NCBI GenBank assembly: GCA_937870675.1
Contig: CALMZN010000018.1
Location: 1-43,869 of the forward strand
Direction: 5' to 3'
DNA: 43,869 nucleotides
DNA from: an uncultured bacterium
Lineage (GTDB): Bacteria; Patescibacteriota; Patescibacteriia; UBA1558; GWA2-36-10
The translations under genes were made by a program, and so were the position numbers. This document shows, in pieces, positions 13,735-21,702 of the stretch (positions are counted from its first letter, which is position 1; every line of letters starts with the position of its first letter). The notes under the pieces are model-generated. The model did not search any database, had not been told where the DNA came from, and worked only from the letters and a program-made list of their open reading frames with translations.

Positions 13735-15336
13735 ATGACAGCTGACGAGAAATGGCGAAAATTTAAAAAAACCTTTTTTCAGTTCAAACTAGACTATTGG
13801 CTGATTTTTCTGGTTTTAGCTTTTTATTATGCTTGCCTACAGTGGAATGGCTATATAGGCGACCCTGACGGCTTTTATCACGCCAAGATAGCTGATTTCC
13901 TAAGACAGGGTATATTACTCAAAGAACTGCCTTGGATGCAATACAGCTCAATTACTGAGCATTTTACTGATCACCACCTGCTTTACCATCTATTATTAGT
14001 GCCTTTTACTTACATTCAATCACCCCTGATCGGGGTCAAGGTGGCCACGGTATTTTTCGCCACTTTAATGGGGTTAACTTTCTACTGGTTATTTAAAAAA
14101 CTAAACATTGTCTGGCCGTGGCTGTGGACTTTTTTACTAATTAGCTTGCCAGATCTTACTTTTCGCCTAACTCTAATCAAAGTAAACAGTTTATCTTTAA
14201 TATTTATTTGCTTTTTTATTTACGGCTTGTATTACAAAAAACGCTGGCTGATTTTTACTTTGGGATTTCTTTTTGTGTGGCTCTATGGTGGCTGGCCGAT
14301 TGCCTTTTTGCTGGGACTTATTTTTTTGCTAGCTACAGCTATTTATGATTTTATACACCACAAAAAAATCAAGCTCTTTCACCAGCGCTTGCTCATATCT
14401 TGGGATGATAAAAATAAATTCATTGCTGATAAAAAAACCTTACTATTCTTGATGAGCGGTTTGTTGGCTGGCGTAATAATCAACCCCTACTTTCCTCATA
14501 ATCTAAAATTTTACTATGAACAATTTTTTCTAATCGGCGTCATCAACTATGGCTATCTTTTTTCTGTTGGCGGTGAGTGGTATGGTCGCTCAATCCCGCA
14601 GGTAATATATTCGGGCGATTATTTTTTTATTTTGGGAATCATAGCTATAATAATTTTGTTTTTCAATTACAAAAAAATTAGCCACTTAAGCTGGTTTAGC
14701 TTTTTGCTAAGCTTTTTATTTTTGTTATTGACCCTAAAATCATACCGTTTTATTGAATATTATCTTCCTTTTTTATTAATTTTTACAGCCAGCGCTTGGA
14801 CTGATATTGTTAAAAAAATTGGCTTCAAAACAATTACCAAAAACATCAAATCTCTGCTTGAGTGGCAAAAAATATTTTTGCTAATTTATTTAGCTATTTT
14901 TTGTATTATTGCCCAACCAAATATTTACAAAAAAATATTGGATACCAAAACACCCAAAGACCTCCCAATTGATCGTTATCAGTCAAGCGCCAATTGGCTA
15001 AAAAACAACACTCCAAAAAATAGCGTGGTCTTCCACGAGGATTGGGATGAATGGCCAATGCTTTTTTATTATAACGACCACAATTACTATATTGTCGGCT
15101 TAGATTTTTCTTTTATGTATTTTTCGCATCCGGCTTTACAAAAAAAATACATTGCTATCACCAAGGGCGATCTAAAAGACAACTTGGCTTGGGAAATAAA
15201 AAATGGTTTCAATGCTAGCTATATTTTTGTGGAAAAAACTCGGCACGAAAATCTGATCGCCAATATAAAAAAAGACCGGAATATTTCCTTGTCCTATGAA
15301 GATAAATATTTTCTAATTTACAAAATAGCTTACTAA
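13735..15336 (+). CDS. Polytopic GT-C-fold membrane glycosyltransferase-like protein (PMT_2/ArnT/STT3-like)
   Basis: 533 aa with at least 10 hydrophobic helices. An early-loop D-x-D motif (GDPDGFYH) is present, and the C-terminal soluble part contains HEDWDEWP. Confidence 0.6.
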   Translation: MTADEKWRKFKKTFFQFKLDYWLIFLVLAFYYACLQWNGYIGDPDGFYHAKIADFLRQGILLKELPWMQYSSITEHFTDHHLLYHLLLVPFTYIQSPLIGVKVATVFFATLMGLTFYWLFKKLNIVWPWLWTFLLISLPDLTFRLTLIKVNSLSLIFICFFIYGLYYKKRWLIFTLGFLFVWLYGGWPIAFLLGLIFLLATAIYDFIHHKKIKLFHQRLLISWDDKNKFIADKKTLLFLMSGLLAGVIINPYFPHNLKFYYEQFFLIGVINYGYLFSVGGEWYGRSIPQVIYSGDYFFILGIIAIIILFFNYKKISHLSWFSFLLSFLFLLLTLKSYRFIEYYLPFLLIFTASAWTDIVKKIGFKTITKNIKSLLEWQKIFLLIYLAIFCIIAQPNIYKKILDTKTPKDLPIDRYQSSANWLKNNTPKNSVVFHEDWDEWPMLFYYNDHNYYIVGLDFSFMYFSHPALQKKYIAITKGDLKDNLAWEIKNGFNASYIFVEKTRHENLIANIKKDRNISLSYEDKYFLIYKIAY

Positions 15337-15344
15337 CTTATTTA

Positions 15345-17234
15345 TTATTGGCTAAAATAAGTTCTATCAAACACTTTTTCTCTTTTGATAAGCAGACCCA
15401 AGTTGCTCCTGTCGCCCAAGACATTGCGACTCTCATAGCGATAAATTTCAAAAGAGTCAACCTGATTATTCAAATAATAATAAACTGTTGCTGTTTGCCC
15501 AGCTTTGTTTTGGGCCAAGGAATAAAGCCCATAATCAAAAAGTACTTCCCAATATTGGTCATTCTGATAAAATCTGACCAGATAATAATTGCTTACTAAA
15601 TTATTATAATTTATTTTTAAGGTCTGTGCCTCAGCCGACTGTGTCAATGACCATGCTTTGAGTAGACCATCTTCTCCGCTCGTCACTGACTCAAGCTCAA
15701 AATAAGGCATACTCTTTTCACCAGAAGTGTCTTTGCTCTGCCACAAAAAAATATTGTCCTTGGCATAAGTCAAGTTGTAATCCGCCAAAACAGCCCCCCA
15801 GCGATCCGGCATAGTCAGTGGATCGCCGTGCTTCCAATATAGCGGACTATTGCTGTCATTTTTGGTGGAAATAAATTGGCTCATATCCATCAAGATATAA
15901 TCTACTTTTGGCAAGCTAAAATCTCTTTCCGCAAATATTGTCTTGCCGTAATAAGCATAGTCAATATTGTAGATCTCTCTGCGTGTGCTCAAGGCCGGCA
16001 AAAATGACGAATCCGCGCATACTGTTGCTTGGGGTGGAATCAAGTCAATTATTTTTTGCCTATCTTGATGGTAATTTGGCAAAAATTTCTTGCCAAGTAC
16101 TGAAAAAACGGGTGTGTCAAATATCACAAAAAATAAAATAGAAAAAATAAATAGGACAACAAAAAATGGCTGGTGTTTATAAATCAACCCTAATTTTTGA
16201 GTATTTTTTTTGCTAAATATGGTCCAAAGCCCAAAAATATAAGCCAAGAAAATTCCGGGCATCAAAAACATCACATAGTGGGTCTGTAGCTGGACGCCAT
16301 TGATGCCACCGTTCTTCATCAGATATAGTGAAAACGGAAATAGCGACAAAAGTAAATATTTTTTGGCTAAAAAAGGAACAAAAAGAAATGGCAAAAAATA
16401 ATAAAAAATAAGAATAACATTATTTATAGTAAAAATGTGAGTAAGCACAGCTAGGGGATGCTTCAGCCAGTTAAAAATAACGCCCAACAAACTATCGCCA
16501 CCCAGCCAATTGTAATATACCAAAAATTTGAAACTATTGGCTGGCGAAACCAAGCTAATAATATAAATGGCCGCAAAAAAATATATTAAAGAACTAATAA
16601 AAATATTTATACTGAACTTTAGCGATCTTTTTTCTAATACGCTAAACAAGGCCAAACCCAAAAATAAAAAAGCAGCATCTTCGCGAGTAAGCAAGGTGAG
16701 GACAAAAAATAACACAAACCACTTGAGCTTTTTTTGTTGGTAAAAATAAAAAGCCCAAAAAAACAAAAAAACCATCAGGTGCAACATGTGAAACTCAAAT
16801 AACACTTGACGATGCACAAAGGGATTGGTCAGCCACAAAAAAGCAGTAGTATAAGCGAAAATGACATTGCTGGAATATTTTTTGGCAATAAGGTAAATTG
16901 GCCAAGCTGCTAGAGCGGTGATTATCACTTGAATAATTAAGAGAGTGATGGCTGATGGCTTGATAGCATAAAACGGCAACAACAAAAGCAGGGCTGGTGA
17001 AAAATGATCAGCCAGATAATTGTTCAAAGTAATGGTTTCAGCAAACCAGCGACCATGCCAAGTATTAAAAAAAGTTTGGTTAAAAATCCCCAAGTCAGAG
17101 ATGTTGTAGCCAAAATAATAATATTTTTTGAGAACCAAAAAAATAAAGAACAAAATAAAGACCAGAATACTGACCCAAAGATATCTTTGGCTATGTTTGG
17201 CTAGGTCGGATTTTATTCTACTAACAAAATTCAT
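15345..17234 (-). CDS. DUF2079-family polytopic membrane protein
   Basis: 629 aa. The N-terminal GYNISDLGIFNQTFFNTWHGRWF resembles the DUF2079 signature as I remember it. It has many TM helices and a ~200-aa C-terminal extracytoplasmic domain. Confidence 0.65.
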   Translation of the reverse strand: MNFVSRIKSDLAKHSQRYLWVSILVFILFFIFLVLKKYYYFGYNISDLGIFNQTFFNTWHGRWFAETITLNNYLADHFSPALLLLLPFYAIKPSAITLLIIQVIITALAAWPIYLIAKKYSSNVIFAYTTAFLWLTNPFVHRQVLFEFHMLHLMVFLFFWAFYFYQQKKLKWFVLFFVLTLLTREDAAFLFLGLALFSVLEKRSLKFSINIFISSLIYFFAAIYIISLVSPANSFKFLVYYNWLGGDSLLGVIFNWLKHPLAVLTHIFTINNVILIFYYFLPFLFVPFLAKKYLLLSLFPFSLYLMKNGGINGVQLQTHYVMFLMPGIFLAYIFGLWTIFSKKNTQKLGLIYKHQPFFVVLFIFSILFFVIFDTPVFSVLGKKFLPNYHQDRQKIIDLIPPQATVCADSSFLPALSTRREIYNIDYAYYGKTIFAERDFSLPKVDYILMDMSQFISTKNDSNSPLYWKHGDPLTMPDRWGAVLADYNLTYAKDNIFLWQSKDTSGEKSMPYFELESVTSGEDGLLKAWSLTQSAEAQTLKINYNNLVSNYYLVRFYQNDQYWEVLFDYGLYSLAQNKAGQTATVYYYLNNQVDSFEIYRYESRNVLGDRSNLGLLIKREKVFDRTYFSQ

Positions 17235-17241
17235 TAGTATA

Positions 17242-17250
17242 ATTATAGCA
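17242..17250 (-). promoter_or_regulatory. Extended -10 (TGcTATAAT) 7 nt upstream of the DUF2079 ATG
   Basis: The minus strand reads gtgTGcTATAATtatactaATG. This spacing puts the expected TSS at the A of the start codon. Confidence 0.5.
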
Positions 17251-17289
17251 CACCAAATTCAACCCAACGGATTGATTTTGAACCAGACA

Positions 17290-17318
17290 TTGACAAATAT
17301 TGATATTTAGTATATAAT
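17290..17318 (+). promoter_or_regulatory. Perfect consensus sigma70-type promoter, TTGACA-17 nt-TATAAT
   Basis: TTGACA at 17290-17295, a 17-nt spacer, and TATAAT at 17313-17318. It lies about 60 nt upstream of ATG 17379. Confidence 0.75.
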
Positions 17319-17334
17319 ATAATGTTAGTAAAAG

Positions 17335-18150
17335 CCCTATTTTGGGCACAAATCCGAACCTTGAAAGTGAGGTGCTATATGCGTCGCTATGTGCTTATCT
17401 CCTGTCTGCTGATGGCCCTACTGCCACTCTGTGGCTGTGCTGGCCACCGCCTTCCCTTTGGTCTGGGTGTCGATTACCGGGACTCTGAAGGTCGCGCTCT
17501 GGACTGGCCCCGCGGTGACAATCCGGTCACCGTGGAGATGTTCTTTATCCTGAACTACAATGAGCCGGTGTATATCTCTGTCAACGGCGGGCCCCGAAAC
17601 GAGCTAAGGCCGGGAAGAAACAGCGTCGTCACCCTGACTTCGAAGAAGTCCATACCTTTCGAGGTCTGGTGGGGCAAACGTGTCGGTTACGACACTTTCC
17701 TTGAAGGTGATCCTCACTATGTGGTTGGTCTGTACACTGGCCAGCCAATCATCATTGATGAGTTGTTCCTCCGAAATCTGGTGCGTCTCGAGTTCGTGGT
17801 GGCCAACATTTCTGGTGAAAGCATTGACTTTGTTGACGGTCACGGAAATGTCTTCACTCTCAAGCCGGGAGAAGACAGGGTCTTGAATATCCTTGCCGGG
17901 GACTACATCTTGACCTGGCGACCTTCGGACAAAAGTTATGCTGGTTCCAGTATGAGGGGTCGCCGAATGGTCCGACCTGGACAACCGATTTTCTGGAAGG
18001 AAGTGCTTTACGACGCCGGAACACTGATCGACCGTAGTAGGCCAACTTGGGCTGAAGACATCCTGTTCCGCAATGGTGGATACATCCCCATATAACCTGC
18101 ACCGCACCAAAAACAAGCGGCTCCAACCACCGTGGTTGGAGCCGCTATTA
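17335..18150. other. Compositional island (about 55 % G+C in hand-counted samples, against about 30-38 % in the flanks)
   Basis: I hand-counted 60-nt lines. Inside the island: 17401-17460 is 38/60 G+C, 17701-17760 is 28/60 and 17941-18000 is 34/60. In the flanks: 17221-17280 is 18/60 and 18301-18360 is 23/60. Confidence 0.85.
17379..18095 (+). CDS. Orphan secreted lipoprotein (no family recognised)
   Basis: The ORF-track frame 17322..18095 is trimmed here to ATG 17379, which has the SD GTGAGGTG 5 nt upstream. The N-terminus MRRYVLISCLLMALLPLCGC is a signal peptide with a lipobox-like L-C-G-C. The ORF fills the GC-rich island exactly. There is an internal duplication of a ~48-aa module. Confidence 0.7.
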   Translation: MRRYVLISCLLMALLPLCGCAGHRLPFGLGVDYRDSEGRALDWPRGDNPVTVEMFFILNYNEPVYISVNGGPRNELRPGRNSVVTLTSKKSIPFEVWWGKRVGYDTFLEGDPHYVVGLYTGQPIIIDELFLRNLVRLEFVVANISGESIDFVDGHGNVFTLKPGEDRVLNILAGDYILTWRPSDKSYAGSSMRGRRMVRPGQPIFWKEVLYDAGTLIDRSRPTWAEDILFRNGGYIPI

Positions 18151-18155
18151 TTTTT
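18117..18155. terminator. Bidirectional intrinsic terminator between the island gene and pilin-like gene 1
   Basis: The stem is GCGGCTCCAACCA-CCG-TGGTTGGAGCCGC (13 bp). It is followed by TATTATTTTT on the plus strand and TTGTTTTTGG on the minus strand. Confidence 0.8.
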
Positions 18156-18192
18156 ACAAAAATTACAATTCGATATAACTAGTAAAAAACTA

Positions 18193-18591
18193 TTAGCCAG
18201 CTGGCGGTATTGGCACTGCGGCTGGAGTAGTTCCTCCCCCAACACCAATACCTTCAATCAATCTTAACATCACAAAATTGACTATCACATAAGACGCAAA
18301 AATAATAGCCAAGCCAATCGTAGCATTGATAATGGTCTCTCGTGATTTTTTGATGGCTTCGGTGTTGCCAGCTGAAGTCATCCACTTGAAACCCGCCCAA
18401 AGCATCAGAACAATGACTATGGCCCCCACAAAATAAAGGATGGTGTTGATAATGGAAGTAATAATTTGAATCGGAGTTTTATTGCTCACTAAACCAGTGC
18501 CTCCAGCCGCTTCGTTCAAGGAGTCCAAAGGATTCACTGCTAGAGCAGTAAAAGGCAACAATAGAAATAAGGAAATAATATATTTATACAT
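18193..18591 (-). CDS. TrbC/VirB2-like (type IV secretion pilin-like) small membrane protein, paralog 1
   Basis: I prefer the start at ATG 18591 (MYKYIISLFLLLPFTALA signal peptide, SD AAGGTG 6 nt upstream) over the track's GTG at 18600. It has two TM helices flanking WAGFKWMTSAGNTEAIKKSRET, and a Gly/Pro-rich tail. Confidence 0.7.
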   Translation of the reverse strand: MYKYIISLFLLLPFTALAVNPLDSLNEAAGGTGLVSNKTPIQIITSIINTILYFVGAIVIVLMLWAGFKWMTSAGNTEAIKKSRETIINATIGLAIIFASYVIVNFVMLRLIEGIGVGGGTTPAAVPIPPAG

Positions 18592-18661: not shown

Positions 18662-19018
18662 CTACGTTAAAAGTTGGTTTGACAATTGGTCAAAGATGTA
18701 TTGAGCGGCGGCGTATGAAGCGAAAATAATGGCCAAGCCAACAACAGCGGCGCCCATGATTTTCTTGGCGGCCTCAATCTGCTCACTATTACCCTGAGAA
18801 GTGAACCATTTGAATCCACCATAAAGGAATAACAAGACGGCAATCGCGCCTAAGAAGGTCAAAATAATGTTCGTAATATTTGCAACAACCTCGAATATAT
18901 CTTTACTGGTTTCTGGAGCTGTGGATAGATTCTGTAAACTATTTCGGCCAAATGGATCATCTTGAGCCATAGCCATACCTGGCGCTAAAAGCATTAGGGA
19001 AACTAATAATTTTTTCAT
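18662..19018 (-). CDS. TrbC/VirB2-like small membrane protein, paralog 2
   Basis: The track ORF 18662..19111 is trimmed here to ATG 19018 (MKKLLVSLMLLAPGMAMA signal peptide), which has the SD AAAGGGGGTGA upstream. The removed extension overlaps a good promoter. The core motif is YGGFKWFTSQGNSEQIEAAKK. Confidence 0.72.
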   Translation of the reverse strand: MKKLLVSLMLLAPGMAMAQDDPFGRNSLQNLSTAPETSKDIFEVVANITNIILTFLGAIAVLLFLYGGFKWFTSQGNSEQIEAAKKIMGAAVVGLAIIFASYAAAQYIFDQLSNQLLT

Positions 19019-19082
19019 TTCTTCACCCCCTTTCAATTTTAAGATTTTAATAATTAATAACAAGGTACTTTTTACTAATAAT

Positions 19083-19111
19083 ATTATAGTCCAAAAACCA
19101 CAAAACATCAA
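19083..19111 (-). promoter_or_regulatory. Candidate promoter of pilin-like paralog 2, TTGATG-17 nt-TATAAT
   Basis: The minus strand reads TTGATGttttgtggtttttggacTATAAT, about 65 nt upstream of ATG 19018. Confidence 0.6.
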
Positions 19112-19128
19112 GAACCGAGAAATTATGT

Positions 19129-19518
19129 TTATTTTAAAAATTCGGTAAAAACATAATTCAATATTACATAGCTAAAGAAAATCATAGCTAGGCCAAATAT
19201 CGCCCAGACCAATGTCTCTCTGCCTTTCTTTACTTTTTCGGGATTGCCTTGGGAAGTGAGCCAGGTAAAACCACCCAAAACCAGATACAATAAAGCCACA
19301 GCCCCAACTATGCCTAAGATGGCTTTGATGACATTGTTGATAAGTAAGGGGACGGTATCAACTGATAGGGGGTTGTCTAGGGAAATTCTATCATCTGTTG
19401 CTGCCCAAGCCGACAAGGGAAGCGTGGCTAGCCAAAATAAATTTATTATTTTTTTTACCCCGTTAAATAAATTTTTTCGGGGCTTACCAACATTATTCAT
19501 ATTTTTTATATTTTTCAT
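19129..19518 (-). CDS. TrbC/VirB2-like small membrane protein, paralog 3
   Basis: 129 aa. The core motif is LGGFTWLTSQGNPEKVKKGRET, between two TM helices. The signal-peptide-like KKIINLFWLATLPLSAWA is preceded by about 20 extra residues, so the true start is uncertain. Confidence 0.65.
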   Translation of the reverse strand: MKNIKNMNNVGKPRKNLFNGVKKIINLFWLATLPLSAWAATDDRISLDNPLSVDTVPLLINNVIKAILGIVGAVALLYLVLGGFTWLTSQGNPEKVKKGRETLVWAIFGLAMIFFSYVILNYVFTEFLK

Positions 19519-19589
19519 TGGTGTCTAATTTATATAGTCATGCAATAAATTTAAAATTTAAACTATGTTTAAATTTTATTTAACGGGGT
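19457..19589. repeat. 15-nt perfect inverted repeat enclosing the start codon of pilin-like paralog 3
   Basis: The plus strand has ACCCCGTTAAATAAA at 19457-19471 and TTTATTTAACGGGGT at 19575-19589. A third partner, CGGGGC, lies at 19478-19483. Confidence 0.9.
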
Positions 19590-19608
19590 GAATATATTTA
19601 TGATTGTC

Positions 19609-19649
19609 ATTGCGAGTTCCGTCGCGTCAGACGCGACGGAACTCGCAAT
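19609..19649. repeat. 18-bp-stem perfect palindromic hairpin; its 21-nt core recurs at 25419-25439
   Basis: The hairpin is ATTGCGAGTTCCGTCGCG-TCAGA-CGCGACGGAACTCGCAAT. The core CCGTCGCGTCAGACGCGACGG is identical, including loop orientation, to the recA terminator hairpin. Confidence 0.9.
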
Positions 19650-19663
19650 CACAGCTTTATTTT

Positions 19664-20341
19664 TTATATTCCTGGTATCACTGGTAAATCATCTAAGGGA
19701 TTCATCATGACACAAATATAGTGTTCATCGCCGGGGCACAAATTCTTCTCATAATATTCACTTATTGCTGGCAACAAAGACAGATCTAATACATTATAAC
19801 ACTTCCAGCTCTCAAAATTAGGTAACCCTTCTATGGGATTCATTTCCGCCTTGACCTCACACTTGGTGACACACTCCTCGTGCCAACAAACATAGGGATT
19901 GATGGCCGTACTACCCGCAATCACGTTGCAAGGTGTTTCATCTGACTTGCCATCGCATTGGTCCGCCACAGCGCCAATCTGATAGTCACTCTTTACATCT
20001 AAAATATCATTCACGAAAAAATTTAATAACAAATAACTAGTAAAAGCAATGAACAGAGCAATGACTGTGTTGGTCATGGTCTGTTGGCCTTTGCGCACTT
20101 TTTCTTGGTTACCTTGTGATGTCATCCACTGGAAACCGCCAATTACAAAGTACAACAAGGCCACCGCCCCCATAGCGCCGAGCAATAACTTGGTTAATAA
20201 AATAAAACCAGTGGCCACGTCAACTAATTGACAATCTCCATCAGTAATACAATTCAAAGAATCCAAAAATCCTGACTCAGCCGCAAAAGCTACTAGTGGC
20301 AAAGCAAAAATTGTTAAAATTATTATTTTAAAATATTTCAT
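19664..20341 (-). CDS. TrbC/VirB2-like small membrane protein, paralog 4, fused to a Cys-rich C-terminal domain
   Basis: 225 aa. It has a signal peptide (MKYFKIIILTIFALPLVAFA) and the core IGGFQWMTSQGNQEKVRKGQQT. A ~110-aa tail follows with 8 Cys (10 Cys in total). Its ATG overlaps the stop of the upstream binding-protein gene (ATGA). Confidence 0.7.
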   Translation of the reverse strand: MKYFKIIILTIFALPLVAFAAESGFLDSLNCITDGDCQLVDVATGFILLTKLLLGAMGAVALLYFVIGGFQWMTSQGNQEKVRKGQQTMTNTVIALFIAFTSYLLLNFFVNDILDVKSDYQIGAVADQCDGKSDETPCNVIAGSTAINPYVCWHEECVTKCEVKAEMNPIEGLPNFESWKCYNVLDLSLLPAISEYYEKNLCPGDEHYICVMMNPLDDLPVIPGI

Positions 20342-21702
20342 TGGCTGGGCTGATAAGTTTGATTTATTCTATCAATAAATAATTTCAAATCTGACTGGTT
20401 GTTGATGTCAATTTTGTTGTCAGCCAAACCATTGATAAAATCGGCCATATAGCTTTCGGCTTTGGGGTAATCATAACCAGTGTACCAGTTGTCGGCGGTC
20501 AAAACCTGATTGGCAAAAGGAGCAATGTCGGGATTATTCTTTTGCTCAATGATCAATGAACGCAAAGCAGTTGGTTTTTTGTTTTGATCCAAATATTTTT
20601 TGACATTTTGGGCGCTGGCTGTGTTTTGGATAAAGTTCCAAGCTACGCCTTGATTCTTGGATTTTTTGGCGACCACATTGACCCAGTAGTCGGCATAATA
20701 CTTTGTGCCTTGTGATCCTTCGGTTTGTGGAAAATTGGTAATGCCCCATTCAAATGGCACTCCGGCTTTACGCAAAGCGTCGGCGTGATAGCTATAACCA
20801 AAGAAATAGGCCAGTTTGCCAGAGCTAAACATATCAAAAGCATTGGGCAAACTCTTGCTCCAAGAATATGAAGCCAAGCCCGGTCGAGCAAAGCTAATAT
20901 AAAAATTTATAGCTTCTTGAAATCTAGCGGCTGATTGCTCTTCACCAACTGGATTAAACTTTGTGCCTTTTAGATTAACTTGGGTTTGGAGCATCAAGCT
21001 AGAAACTATATCAAAAAATCTTGGTATGTTGTCGGCCGTGCCCAAGGCCACACCTGATTGAACTATTTTATTGTCAGTGGTCACTTTGGTCAGCTGACTG
21101 GTCTGATCCACCAGATCATTGAAGGTAATGATTTTTTCGGGCAAGCTAGCTTGGTCAAGTAAGTCCTCGTTATAAAAAGTGACTAGCGTGTCTAGCGAAT
21201 AAGGCAAAGCATATATTTGATTGTTTTTGACCACATTGTTGTACACCACATCAACATACTGGTTCTTAACTTCGTTGGCGCTAAGCCCTTTTACTGTCTG
21301 CAAAGTGACGACTGTTTCTTTTTTTATGGTGCCTTTTATTTCCTGCACTGGAATTTGGACTGTGCTGGGCATGGGCACAATGCGATTTTGGTATTTATTG
21401 AGCCAGCTGGCTGGAATAGCAAAAACATCCGGCCCCCGATCATCAGCCCAGGCCTCTAATAATTTTCTTTCATATTCTTCATAACGAAGCTGTTTGTAGG
21501 TGACTTTCACGGTAGGGTGGCTAGCTTGGTAGTCCTGTATCAAGCTAGCTACTTGTGTGGGGCTATCCCACACTCCCCAGTAGGTCAAAGCCACGGGTTG
21601 ACTGGCACTATCTGTGGAGCAACCCAAGCCCTTACAACCAAAACCAGAGGTGATGACAAACACTCCGATCAATAATAATGTAATTATTTTGTAGCCACGC
21701 AT
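20338..21702 (-). CDS. Extracellular solute-binding lipoprotein (ABC family-1, sugar-type) without cognate permease or ATPase nearby
   Basis: 454 aa. It has a signal peptide plus lipobox (LLLIGVFVITSGFGC). The size and sequence character fit sugar-binding proteins. Confidence 0.7.
   Translation of the reverse strand: MRGYKIITLLLIGVFVITSGFGCKGLGCSTDSASQPVALTYWGVWDSPTQVASLIQDYQASHPTVKVTYKQLRYEEYERKLLEAWADDRGPDVFAIPASWLNKYQNRIVPMPSTVQIPVQEIKGTIKKETVVTLQTVKGLSANEVKNQYVDVVYNNVVKNNQIYALPYSLDTLVTFYNEDLLDQASLPEKIITFNDLVDQTSQLTKVTTDNKIVQSGVALGTADNIPRFFDIVSSLMLQTQVNLKGTKFNPVGEEQSAARFQEAINFYISFARPGLASYSWSKSLPNAFDMFSSGKLAYFFGYSYHADALRKAGVPFEWGITNFPQTEGSQGTKYYADYWVNVVAKKSKNQGVAWNFIQNTASAQNVKKYLDQNKKPTALRSLIIEQKNNPDIAPFANQVLTADNWYTGYDYPKAESYMADFINGLADNKIDINNQSDLKLFIDRINQTYQPSQ

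Follow-up and report, generated by a model that had tools for sequence, protein, structure and literature searches.

A lipoprotein gene with a G+C content far above that of its surroundings lies between a gene for a DUF2079 membrane protein and an array of VirB2-like pilin genes in an uncultured bacterium of the Patescibacteria. We analyzed this gene within a contiguous stretch of 43,869 nucleotides (contig CALMZN010000018.1 of NCBI GenBank assembly GCA_937870675.1, forward strand), here termed the window, which according to Pfam matches of all long open reading frames (ORFs) is an ordinary chromosomal stretch of a Patescibacteria genome. We show here that the lipoprotein gene has been convergent to the first pilin gene since before the sampled genomes diverged, and that the GC-rich island is a self-contained single expression unit. 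The features of this unit and of its direct neighbors are the following, with positions counted from the first nucleotide of the window:

15345-17234, minus strand: gene for a DUF2079 membrane protein, the divergent left neighbor (PF09852, E = 1.5e-58)
17290-17318, plus strand: sigma-70 consensus promoter TTGACA-17 nt-TATAAT, -35 box at 17290-17295 and -10 box at 17313-17318
17334-17347, plus strand: stem-loop GCCC-TATTTT-GGGC of the 5' untranslated region (UTR), just behind the -10 box
17358-17373, plus strand: ACCUU (17358-17362), which can pair with the Shine-Dalgarno (SD) GAGGU (17369-17373) according to the predicted pairing
17379-18095, plus strand: coding sequence of the lipoprotein, an ORF of 238 codons from the ATG at 17379, encoding a precursor of 238 residues
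17400-18240, no strand: hypervariable block seen in the identity profile, covering the mature lipoprotein, terminator and spacer as well as the final ~15 codons of pilin 1
17436-17438, plus strand: codon of Cys20 in the lipobox L-C-G-C, with residues 1-19 as signal peptide (family alignment)
17526-17759, plus strand: beta-sandwich domain 1, approximately residues 50-127 (AlphaFold2 (AF2) model)
17781-18032, plus strand: beta-sandwich domain 2, approximately residues 135-218 (AF2 model)
18116-18146, both strands: bidirectional intrinsic terminator with a 14-bp stem, common to the lipoprotein gene and the convergent pilin gene
18193-18591, minus strand: gene for VirB2-like type IV secretion system (T4SS) pilin 1, convergent to the lipoprotein gene (PF18895, T4SS_pilin)
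18662-20341, minus strand: three more VirB2-like pilins at 18662-19021/19111, 19129-19518 and 19664-20341 (PF18895), with conserved synteny

The compositional contrast is confined to the lipoprotein gene. Its coding sequence has a G+C content of 53.6 %, compared to 39.2 +/- 3.6 % elsewhere (maximum 48.8 %, z = 4.0; 717-nt sliding segments), and its G+C at third codon positions (GC3) of 0.593-0.603 lies about six standard deviations above that of the 30 other ORFs in the window (0.401 +/- 0.030, maximum 0.50 in RecA). The shift is present at all three codon positions, A and T are equally depleted, and with a G content of 0.276 and a C content of 0.259 the GC skew is only ~0.03. Upstream of the gene, TTGACA-17-TATAAT is the sole perfect match to this consensus in the 43.9-kb window, where 0.01 would be expected. 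It is kept in 10 of 10 aligned orthologues, and also in the loci L017 and L021 (loci of relatives are given as L numbers), while the surrounding intergenic region has diverged. L019 retains TTGACA and has no perfect consensus promoter; by eye, its promoter reads TTGACA-17-TATATT. The stem-loop at 17334-17347 follows closely behind the -10 box and therefore probably lies near the start of the transcript. All seven 5' UTRs that were folded have a predicted hairpin at the equivalent position, with stems of differing sequence (GCCC/GGGC, GGCCUAA/UUAGGCC, GCCCCA/UGGGGC, GCCAUC/GAUGGC). Since single-sequence z-scores are only -0.1 to -2.5, it is the conservation of this hairpin and not its energy that argues for it. 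The full SD sequence, GTGAGGTG, occupies 17367-17374. A UTR block, CGAACCTTGA, is kept in seven of ten UTRs and replaced by a CCUU or UCUUU equivalent in the remaining ones, and minimum free energy folds pair the CCUU element with the SD. At 17355-17373 (plus strand) the conserved block reads CGAACCUUGA, and its CCUU can pair weakly (4-5 bp) with the GAGG of the SD. Such a pairing might serve to control translation or act as a thermosensor-like hairpin. At the other end, the terminator consists of 14 pairs (9 of them G-C) and a 3-nt loop with T-runs on both strands, and a 3' hairpin with differing stem sequences is kept in every orthologue (dG of the folded 3' region, -21 to -37 kcal/mol). Together, promoter, UTR hairpin, SD and 3' hairpin look like a unit selected for strong and stable expression. 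An earlier annotation of the same DNA from its letters alone (the sequence-only reading) had already described a single expression unit with its own perfect promoter, strong SD, 238-codon ORF from the ATG at 17379 and bidirectional terminator with T-tracts, and had counted by hand 60-nt lines inside and outside the island. All of this holds, including the counts, which are exact (63.3, 46.7 and 56.7 % G+C within, 30.0 and 38.3 % outside); only two dimensions had to be corrected, as the SD ends 4 nt and not 5 nt before the ATG and the terminator stem has 14 and not 13 pairs.

The N-terminus of the product reads MRRY-VLISCLLMALLPL, a basic n-region followed by a hydrophobic h-region, and is modeled by AF2 as a helix at residues 2-19. 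The lipobox cysteine at position 20 is invariant in all 18 family members, most of which carry LAGC, LSGC, LSAC or VAGC, and the L-C-G-C of the window clade has an unusual residue at position -2. With its signal peptide and this invariant cysteine the protein is, as had been suspected, a membrane-anchored lipoprotein by all sequence signs and a predicted substrate of Lgt and LspA; the window, with its 31 genes, includes neither lgt nor lspA. Besides C20, the residues G38, G117 and N143 are invariant in the family alignment, and two motifs are conserved, FRDxxGxxLDxPxG behind the lipobox and GLYTGxPIxIDExFLRG between the domains, with variable surfaces of the sandwiches. An AF2 model calculated with the 18-sequence alignment reaches a mean confidence (pLDDT) of 86.8 and shows a flexible tether followed by two beta-sandwich domains; only four sequences as input gave 45.7, and the model used here is that from 18 sequences. 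The two modules proposed by the sequence-only reading are thus found as domains in a confident model, but sequence support for their duplication is weak, with an hhalign comparison of the two protein halves giving P = 1.5e-4 at a probability of 52 %. An origin of both domains from a duplicated module is plausible, but not proven. Foldseek matches to the model are generic tandem immunoglobulin (Ig)-like proteins, such as the PepT1/2 ectodomain and phage tail proteins, with query TM-scores (TMq) of at most 0.29. Searches of Pfam, NCBIfam, PHROG and PADLOC all remained without a match, in agreement with the earlier impression that no named family is present. A phage or defense origin was rejected, as there is neither a PHROG or PADLOC match nor a homologue in viral contigs. 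Also discarded as spurious were matches of the family profile to PDB sequences, which comprised only the designed 'Cake' and 'Bagel' propellers and included no stretch that was significant by itself. The lipoprotein family is undescribed so far.

A search of 5.8 billion proteins returned four homologues of the lipoprotein, and an exhaustive profile search of 1.84 billion cluster representatives gave 21 matches, ~16 of which are lipoproteins of the same family with 215-240 residues. Long multi-domain proteins matched by the hidden Markov model (P0013, P0015, P0019, P0022, P0023) were excluded as unrelated Ig-like, cadherin and RCC1 repeat proteins aligning over 35-90 residues. No homologue was found outside the pilin context in either of these collections or in viral contigs. 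The genomic context is readable in L001-L006, L008-L011, L013-L015, L017, L019 and L021, and every homologue among them is convergent to a T4SS_pilin gene, as far as the loci extend far enough for this to be assessed, mostly with DUF2079 on the other side; about 13 of these homologues stem from independent assemblies. Convergence with a filament-like gene array and a common terminator had been seen before; the partner can now be named as VirB2-like pilin 1 and the terminator placed at 18116-18146. The synteny series spans relatives whose DUF2079 proteins are between 91-92 % and 39 % identical to that of the window, and none of the relatives with a retained DUF2079/pilin junction lacks the lipoprotein gene, across at least eight independent samples and assemblers. 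All alleles have 48-55 % G+C and a GC3 of 0.54-0.73, compared to 30-39 % G+C in the rest of their loci. In the distant member L019 (Logan SRR13959604) the left neighbor encodes a methyltransferase instead of DUF2079 and the convergent pilin is kept, which makes the pilin array the constant partner of the lipoprotein gene. In L007 and L012 the DUF2079 paralogue or orthologue lies in another context, and both loci are uninformative for an empty site. Five of the loci (L007-L010 and L012; third-party annotation records CAYVXP01, CAYRIU01, CAZILH01 and CAYUER01) are titled 'uncultured Gammaproteobacteria bacterium' in the public records. They have a Patescibacteria-type locus of ~38 % G+C, and the titles are likely a taxonomic mislabel.

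The lipoprotein gene is the most variable gene in the locus. Compared with L003 and L009, the nucleotide sequence is 76-98 % identical as far as position ~17400, mostly 28-60 % (range 15-73 %) inside the hypervariable block and again 83-98 % beyond it; likewise, blastn alignments stop at 17437 and 17562 and restart at 18236. The lipoproteins are 42-45 % identical in genomes in which the neighboring proteins mostly reach 86-97 % (69-87 % for pilins 3 and 4), and the divergence spans the whole mature protein. Among allele pairs the proportion of synonymous differences (pS) is 0.63-0.81 and hence saturated, and between the window and L003, L004 and L009 synonymous divergence (dS) amounts to 1.6-2.0 and non-synonymous divergence (dN) to 0.52-0.61, compared to a dS of 0.33-0.97 (pilin 4 up to 1.82) and a dN of 0.005-0.18 for the flanking genes of the same pairs. 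Within an allele class the picture is different: between the window and L001 the lipoprotein dS of 0.41 resembles the 0.47-0.59 of the flanks, and there is no local hypermutation. The sense frame is intact in all alleles, the proportion of non-synonymous differences (pN) is below pS in all allele pairs, and no other gene of the locus reaches its within-class dN/dS of 0.28. Thus, the gene is genuinely coding and evolves under relaxed or diversifying constraint, and the coding signature that the sequence-only reading had expected among homologues is present. The N-terminus of the window allele is a mosaic, with codons 1-20 nearest to L003 (82 % of nucleotides), codons 21-33 nearest to L009 (92 %), codons 34-50 resembling L001 and L004 and the rest resembling only L001. 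Furthermore, the lipoprotein of L003 shares 61 % identity with its counterpart in the distant L011, but only 40-45 % with those of close relatives. Judged from these alignments, old allele classes cut across genome relatedness and are reassorted by recombination. A GC3 of 0.54-0.73 persists in more than ten lineages despite the synonymous saturation; the composition is therefore maintained at equilibrium and cannot stem from gradual amelioration of an ancient import. A role of the gene as target of a diversity-generating retroelement was dismissed, since the window genes include no reverse transcriptase, there is no template repeat of the gene, and A and T are depleted equally.

The G+C excess has a distinct codon pattern. 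At two-fold degenerate codons ending in a pyrimidine (NNY), the C fraction is 0.53-0.81 in the lipoprotein alleles and 0.12-0.43 in the other window genes. In the pooled alleles T is replaced by C at two- and three-fold NNY codons alike, with raised fractions of TTC (0.62 vs. 0.15), TAC (0.80 vs. 0.23), ATC (0.76 vs. 0.18) and the C-ending codons of Asn (0.60 vs. 0.30) and Asp (0.70 vs. 0.34). CTN codons, replacing TTR, make up 0.71-1.0 of Leu codons in the alleles and 0.15-0.61 in the other genes. Val, Thr, Ser and Leu-CTY are shifted moderately, Ala, Gly and Arg-CGN show no change in codon choice, and the rise in four-fold GC3 is modest. The odds shift is ~6-fold at NNY two-fold sites, ~1.7-fold at four-fold sites and absent for Ala, Gly and Arg-CGN. 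The size of the shift tracks the A/T content of the first two codon positions. The amino acid composition is altered as well, with 6.8 instead of 4.0 % Arg, 3.8 instead of 8.6 % Lys, more Val, Gly, Pro and Trp and less Ile than in other proteins. For highly expressed prokaryotic genes a 'fold rule' has been reported, according to which C-ending codons are preferred in two- and three-fold boxes, but not in four-fold boxes (PMC3424539). The synonymous pattern of the lipoprotein gene matches this rule. The excess ends with the transcript: in every allele the 35 nt past the terminator have 6-29 % G+C, although they lie inside the variable block. A regional process, for instance biased gene conversion, is less compatible with this than selection that acts on the mRNA or on its translation.

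A codon-specific G+C excess that ends at the terminator, combined with a conserved consensus promoter, points to selection tied to very high expression. We therefore favor, with a probability of roughly 55 %, the reading that the gene encodes a clade-specific, pilin-array-linked and probably abundant lipoprotein whose G+C content is a selected property of its transcript and whose old allele classes have been recombined between lineages. The descriptive core of this reading, namely the synteny, the persistent G+C content, the block structure, the mosaicism, the codon pattern, the expression signals and the fold, can be held with high confidence. The favored model can be sketched as follows. The perfect promoter, the stem-loop near the 5' end, the strong SD and the strong 3' hairpin would ensure very high expression, and selection on translation and/or mRNA stability would keep the gene at ~54 % G+C in a genome of 39 %. 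In the coding region TTT, TAT, ATT, AAT, AAA and TTR are replaced by TTC, TAC, ATC, AAC, AAG and CTN, and Arg and Val take the place of Lys and Ile. The presumably surface-exposed part of the protein is polymorphic, and its several deep allele classes would predate the split of the genomes that carry them. Alleles would be swapped between lineages by homologous recombination in the conserved flanks, that is, the promoter, UTR and signal peptide region on one side and the pilin gene on the other, and recombination would occur inside the lipoprotein gene too. Balancing or diversifying selection might then act at the cell surface, exerted by a host, by phages or by a pilus-associated partner; exposure, selective agent and pilus link are all putative elements of the model. 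Several observations weigh against this reading. The window and the loci of relatives contain no ribosomal-protein or EF-Tu gene, leaving the preferred codons uncalibrated; the effective number of codons (Nc), 44-61, is no lower than that of other genes, so that the bias differs in direction and not in strength; and avoidance of A/T runs beyond codon choice is not significant (P = 0.22). The fold rule does not explain the Arg/Lys, Val/Ile and Gly/Pro/Trp shifts or Leu CTN, which resemble a general G+C pressure. Finally, sliding dN/dS values never rise above 1 and positive selection is not demonstrated.

A different explanation would be that the locus is a recombination hot spot or variation site, kept GC-rich by biased gene conversion or by a mechanistic need as in the vls system of Borrelia. 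Recombination is evident from the sharp edges of the block, the mosaic N-terminus and the allele classes common to distant lineages, a precedent exists in vls (PMC11499132), and the amino acids and Leu CTN lean toward G+C with a somewhat raised four-fold GC3. We nevertheless regard this as rather unlikely, because the shift is so strongly codon-specific and the non-transcribed spacer in the variable block is AT-rich. Moreover, the skew is ~0.03 and G-runs are unclustered; runs of three or more G occur at 13.9 per kb and C-runs at 8.4 per kb, which is unremarkable. Cassettes of the vls type were looked for and not found: neither blastn nor tblastn revealed partial gene copies in the 44-kb window, and the protein databases contain no extra family members, including no cassette-like ones among the 1.84 billion representatives.

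A more specific proposal concerns the pilin that faces the lipoprotein gene. The Gly/Pro/Thr-rich C-terminal tail of pilin 1 (18193-18240, ~15 residues) is hypervariable, with the remaining pilin 87-97 % conserved among close relatives. A tail ending in ...PATVAD is common to L003 and the distant L011, which also have the same lipoprotein allele class, and tail and lipoprotein may be transferred together or co-evolve. Lipoprotein and pilin 1 tail could then form an exchangeable specificity cassette for the host or phage engaged by the pilus, with a G+C content that is mechanistically needed for diversification or exchange, as suspected for vls. We consider this speculative and on balance doubtful; if true, the cassette would be a new kind of surface-variation system in Patescibacteria.

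It also appears improbable that the gene was acquired long ago and that its alleles have since been imported again and again from a GC-rich source outside the present sampling, for example host bacteria, plasmids or phages of the epibiont's host. Such a history could explain why allele divergence exceeds, and is incongruent with, genome divergence and why all three codon positions are shifted toward G+C, and Patescibacteria are host-associated and possess DNA-uptake-like machinery (PMC12102498). However, none of our searches found a family member outside the Patescibacteria pilin context, and the AT-rich promoter and UTR are conserved along with the gene. The within-class dS equals that of the flanks, so that alleles were vertically inherited over that time scale. 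The sequence-only reading had judged the codon choice to be foreign to that of the neighbors, but GCG, GCC, GGC and CGC do not dominate and the four-fold boxes, with identical choice for Ala, Gly and Arg-CGN, match those of the host genome.

The same reading had favored a recent horizontal transfer, or alternatively an assembly chimera, and here, in contrast to its description of the expression unit, the lipoprotein, the two modules and the lack of a named family, it did not stand. The sharp-edged compositional contrast would suit both. However, equally GC-rich orthologues occupy the same place in every relative examined that keeps the junction, and recent acquisition fails on this ground; the window contains neither a tRNA nor an integrase, transposase or other mobility gene detectable with Pfam, nor meaningful direct repeats. 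The octamer TAGTAAAA found at both edges had cautiously not been counted as a target-site duplication, rightly so, since the window has 10 copies of it against 3.3 +/- 1.7 expected, a number that none of the shuffles attained, and relatives lack the downstream copy. The recurrence of the junctions in independent JGI, ENA, Logan and NCBI assemblies excludes a chimera. One contig from another sample (L018; ENA ERZ781239 NODE_26702) matches window positions 16513-17933 at 99.8 % identity and thereby re-finds the 5' junction. This contig, of coverage 2.2, continues into 345 nt of unrelated GC-rich sequence, giving the truncated protein P0001. Such a join of the gene to GC-rich DNA might be read in favor of transfer, but is probably a low-coverage mis-join inside the GC-rich gene. 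Taken together, the chance that either scenario is correct is minimal. Equally negligible is the idea that the G+C content reflects a structured RNA or an overlapping antisense gene (17604-18257, minus strand, 217 residues). This long ORF does exist, and in six of ten alleles antisense frame a0 has an open stretch of more than 120 codons. The frame is not conserved, however, and is broken in L001, L003 and L015 (longest open runs 61-67 codons). The sense frame is intact with pN below pS, Rfam gives no match in the window, and the alleles are too diverged for a conserved RNA structure.

The window further encodes dnaA, dnaN, ruvA, ruvC, recA, rpoB, rpoC, ftsK and yebC, FemAB, a Mur ligase, a class A penicillin-binding protein, a flippase, Wzy, two nucleotidyl transferases, two glycogen-synthase-like proteins, a glycoside hydrolase of family GH57, a kinase, a tRNA synthetase and a substrate-binding protein (SBP)-like lipoprotein. 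VirB2-like pilin arrays near the replication origin have been described as a hallmark of Patescibacteria, and one such array was reported to be essential in a cultivated Saccharibacterium (PMC12102498). Among 195 long ORFs of the loci (mean C fraction at NNY codons 0.29), the only other genes with raised values are the pilin-2 orthologues (0.39-0.69; 18662-19021, minus strand, in the window and its counterparts in L003, L006 and L008-L011), which hints that pilin 2 is the major and most expressed pilin. Integral membrane proteins have the lowest values (0.12-0.20). Behind the pilins, a gene at 20338-21702 (minus strand) encodes a second lipoprotein of the locus, a protein of 454 residues with the lipobox SGFGC, a GC3 of 0.45 and no Pfam match at E <= 1e-5. 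Conservation of this protein is 82-96 % in closer relatives and 62 % in the most distant loci, and its L015 orthologue has a precomputed SBP_bac_8 match. The stop of the gene and the pilin 4 start overlap by 4 nt. On the other side, a polytopic membrane protein of 533 residues without Pfam family (13735-15336, plus strand) is conserved beside DUF2079. In L004 (5758-7885) and L005 a family 2 glycosyltransferase (GT2) gene and a PMT_2-like gene are inserted between these two, which suggests that the whole neighborhood serves envelope glycosylation.

Patescibacteria are ultra-small and mostly uncultured epibionts, and to our knowledge the molecules of their host interface are largely uncharacterized. 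An undescribed lipoprotein family tied to VirB2-like pilin arrays in one clade is therefore of interest in itself. As the most variable gene of the locus with the strongest promoter signal, the lipoprotein gene would be an obvious candidate for a determinant of host range, a phage receptor or a factor associated with the pilus. In addition, it is a clean counter-example to the annotation rule that atypical G+C means recent transfer, since it stays ~15 points above the genomic G+C though synonymous sites are saturated across the sampled lineages.

Several known systems share some of these properties. With acquired genomic islands the gene has in common the sharp compositional contrast confined to one gene, but it is found at the same site in all relatives, without mobility genes, tRNA or target-site duplication, and its composition is at equilibrium despite saturated synonymous divergence. 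Lipoproteins of the VirB7 type are likewise fast-evolving and encoded beside T4SS pilus genes; VirB7 is small and not covered by an HMM, and the T4SS of the present lineage is of the monoderm type (PMC12102498). VirB7, however, has ~50 residues and belongs to the outer-membrane core complex of diderms, whereas the protein described here has 238 residues and two beta-sandwich domains, and with no VirB4, VirB9 or VirB10 in the window only the adjacency to VirB2-like pilins is common to both. In Lyme-disease Borrelia, vls is a variable surface lipoprotein gene of ~49 % G+C in a genome of ~28.6 %, with a G+C excess that is preserved among strains, presumably by selection (PMC11499132). This parallel to a variable lipoprotein gene far above the G+C of an AT-rich genome is close, but vls has a coding-strand GC skew of ~0.52, G-runs and adjacent silent cassettes that feed gene conversion, where the present gene has a skew of ~0.03. 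Furthermore, the variation seen here is between lineages, and there is no relationship in sequence or fold. Borrelia OspC and Neisseria fHbp are polymorphic surface lipoproteins with deep allele classes that are selected by vertebrate immunity. Like them, the present lipoprotein is encoded by a single-copy gene at a fixed locus with conserved flanks and a conserved signal peptide, and its highly divergent allele classes are reassorted by recombination across lineages. In contrast, the genes for OspC and fHbp are compositionally normal, and here only a bacterial host, a phage or a partner protein could act as the selective agent, with balancing selection as a candidate. A strong promoter, a stabilizing 5' hairpin, a strong terminator and biased codons are characteristic of E. 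coli lpp and ompA. The lipoprotein gene resembles these in its consensus promoter, near-5' stem-loop, strong SD and strong 3' hairpin, and, in line with the fold rule, in its C-ending two- and three-fold codons without a shift in the GCN, GGN and CGN boxes. It differs in its moderate codon bias (Nc about 49), in its amino acid shift and in the lack of homology, and its high expression is a prediction. The lipoprotein gene thus belongs to none of these families; by analogy, VlsE comes closest to it in composition, OspC and fHbp in population structure, and lpp and ompA in the design of expression.

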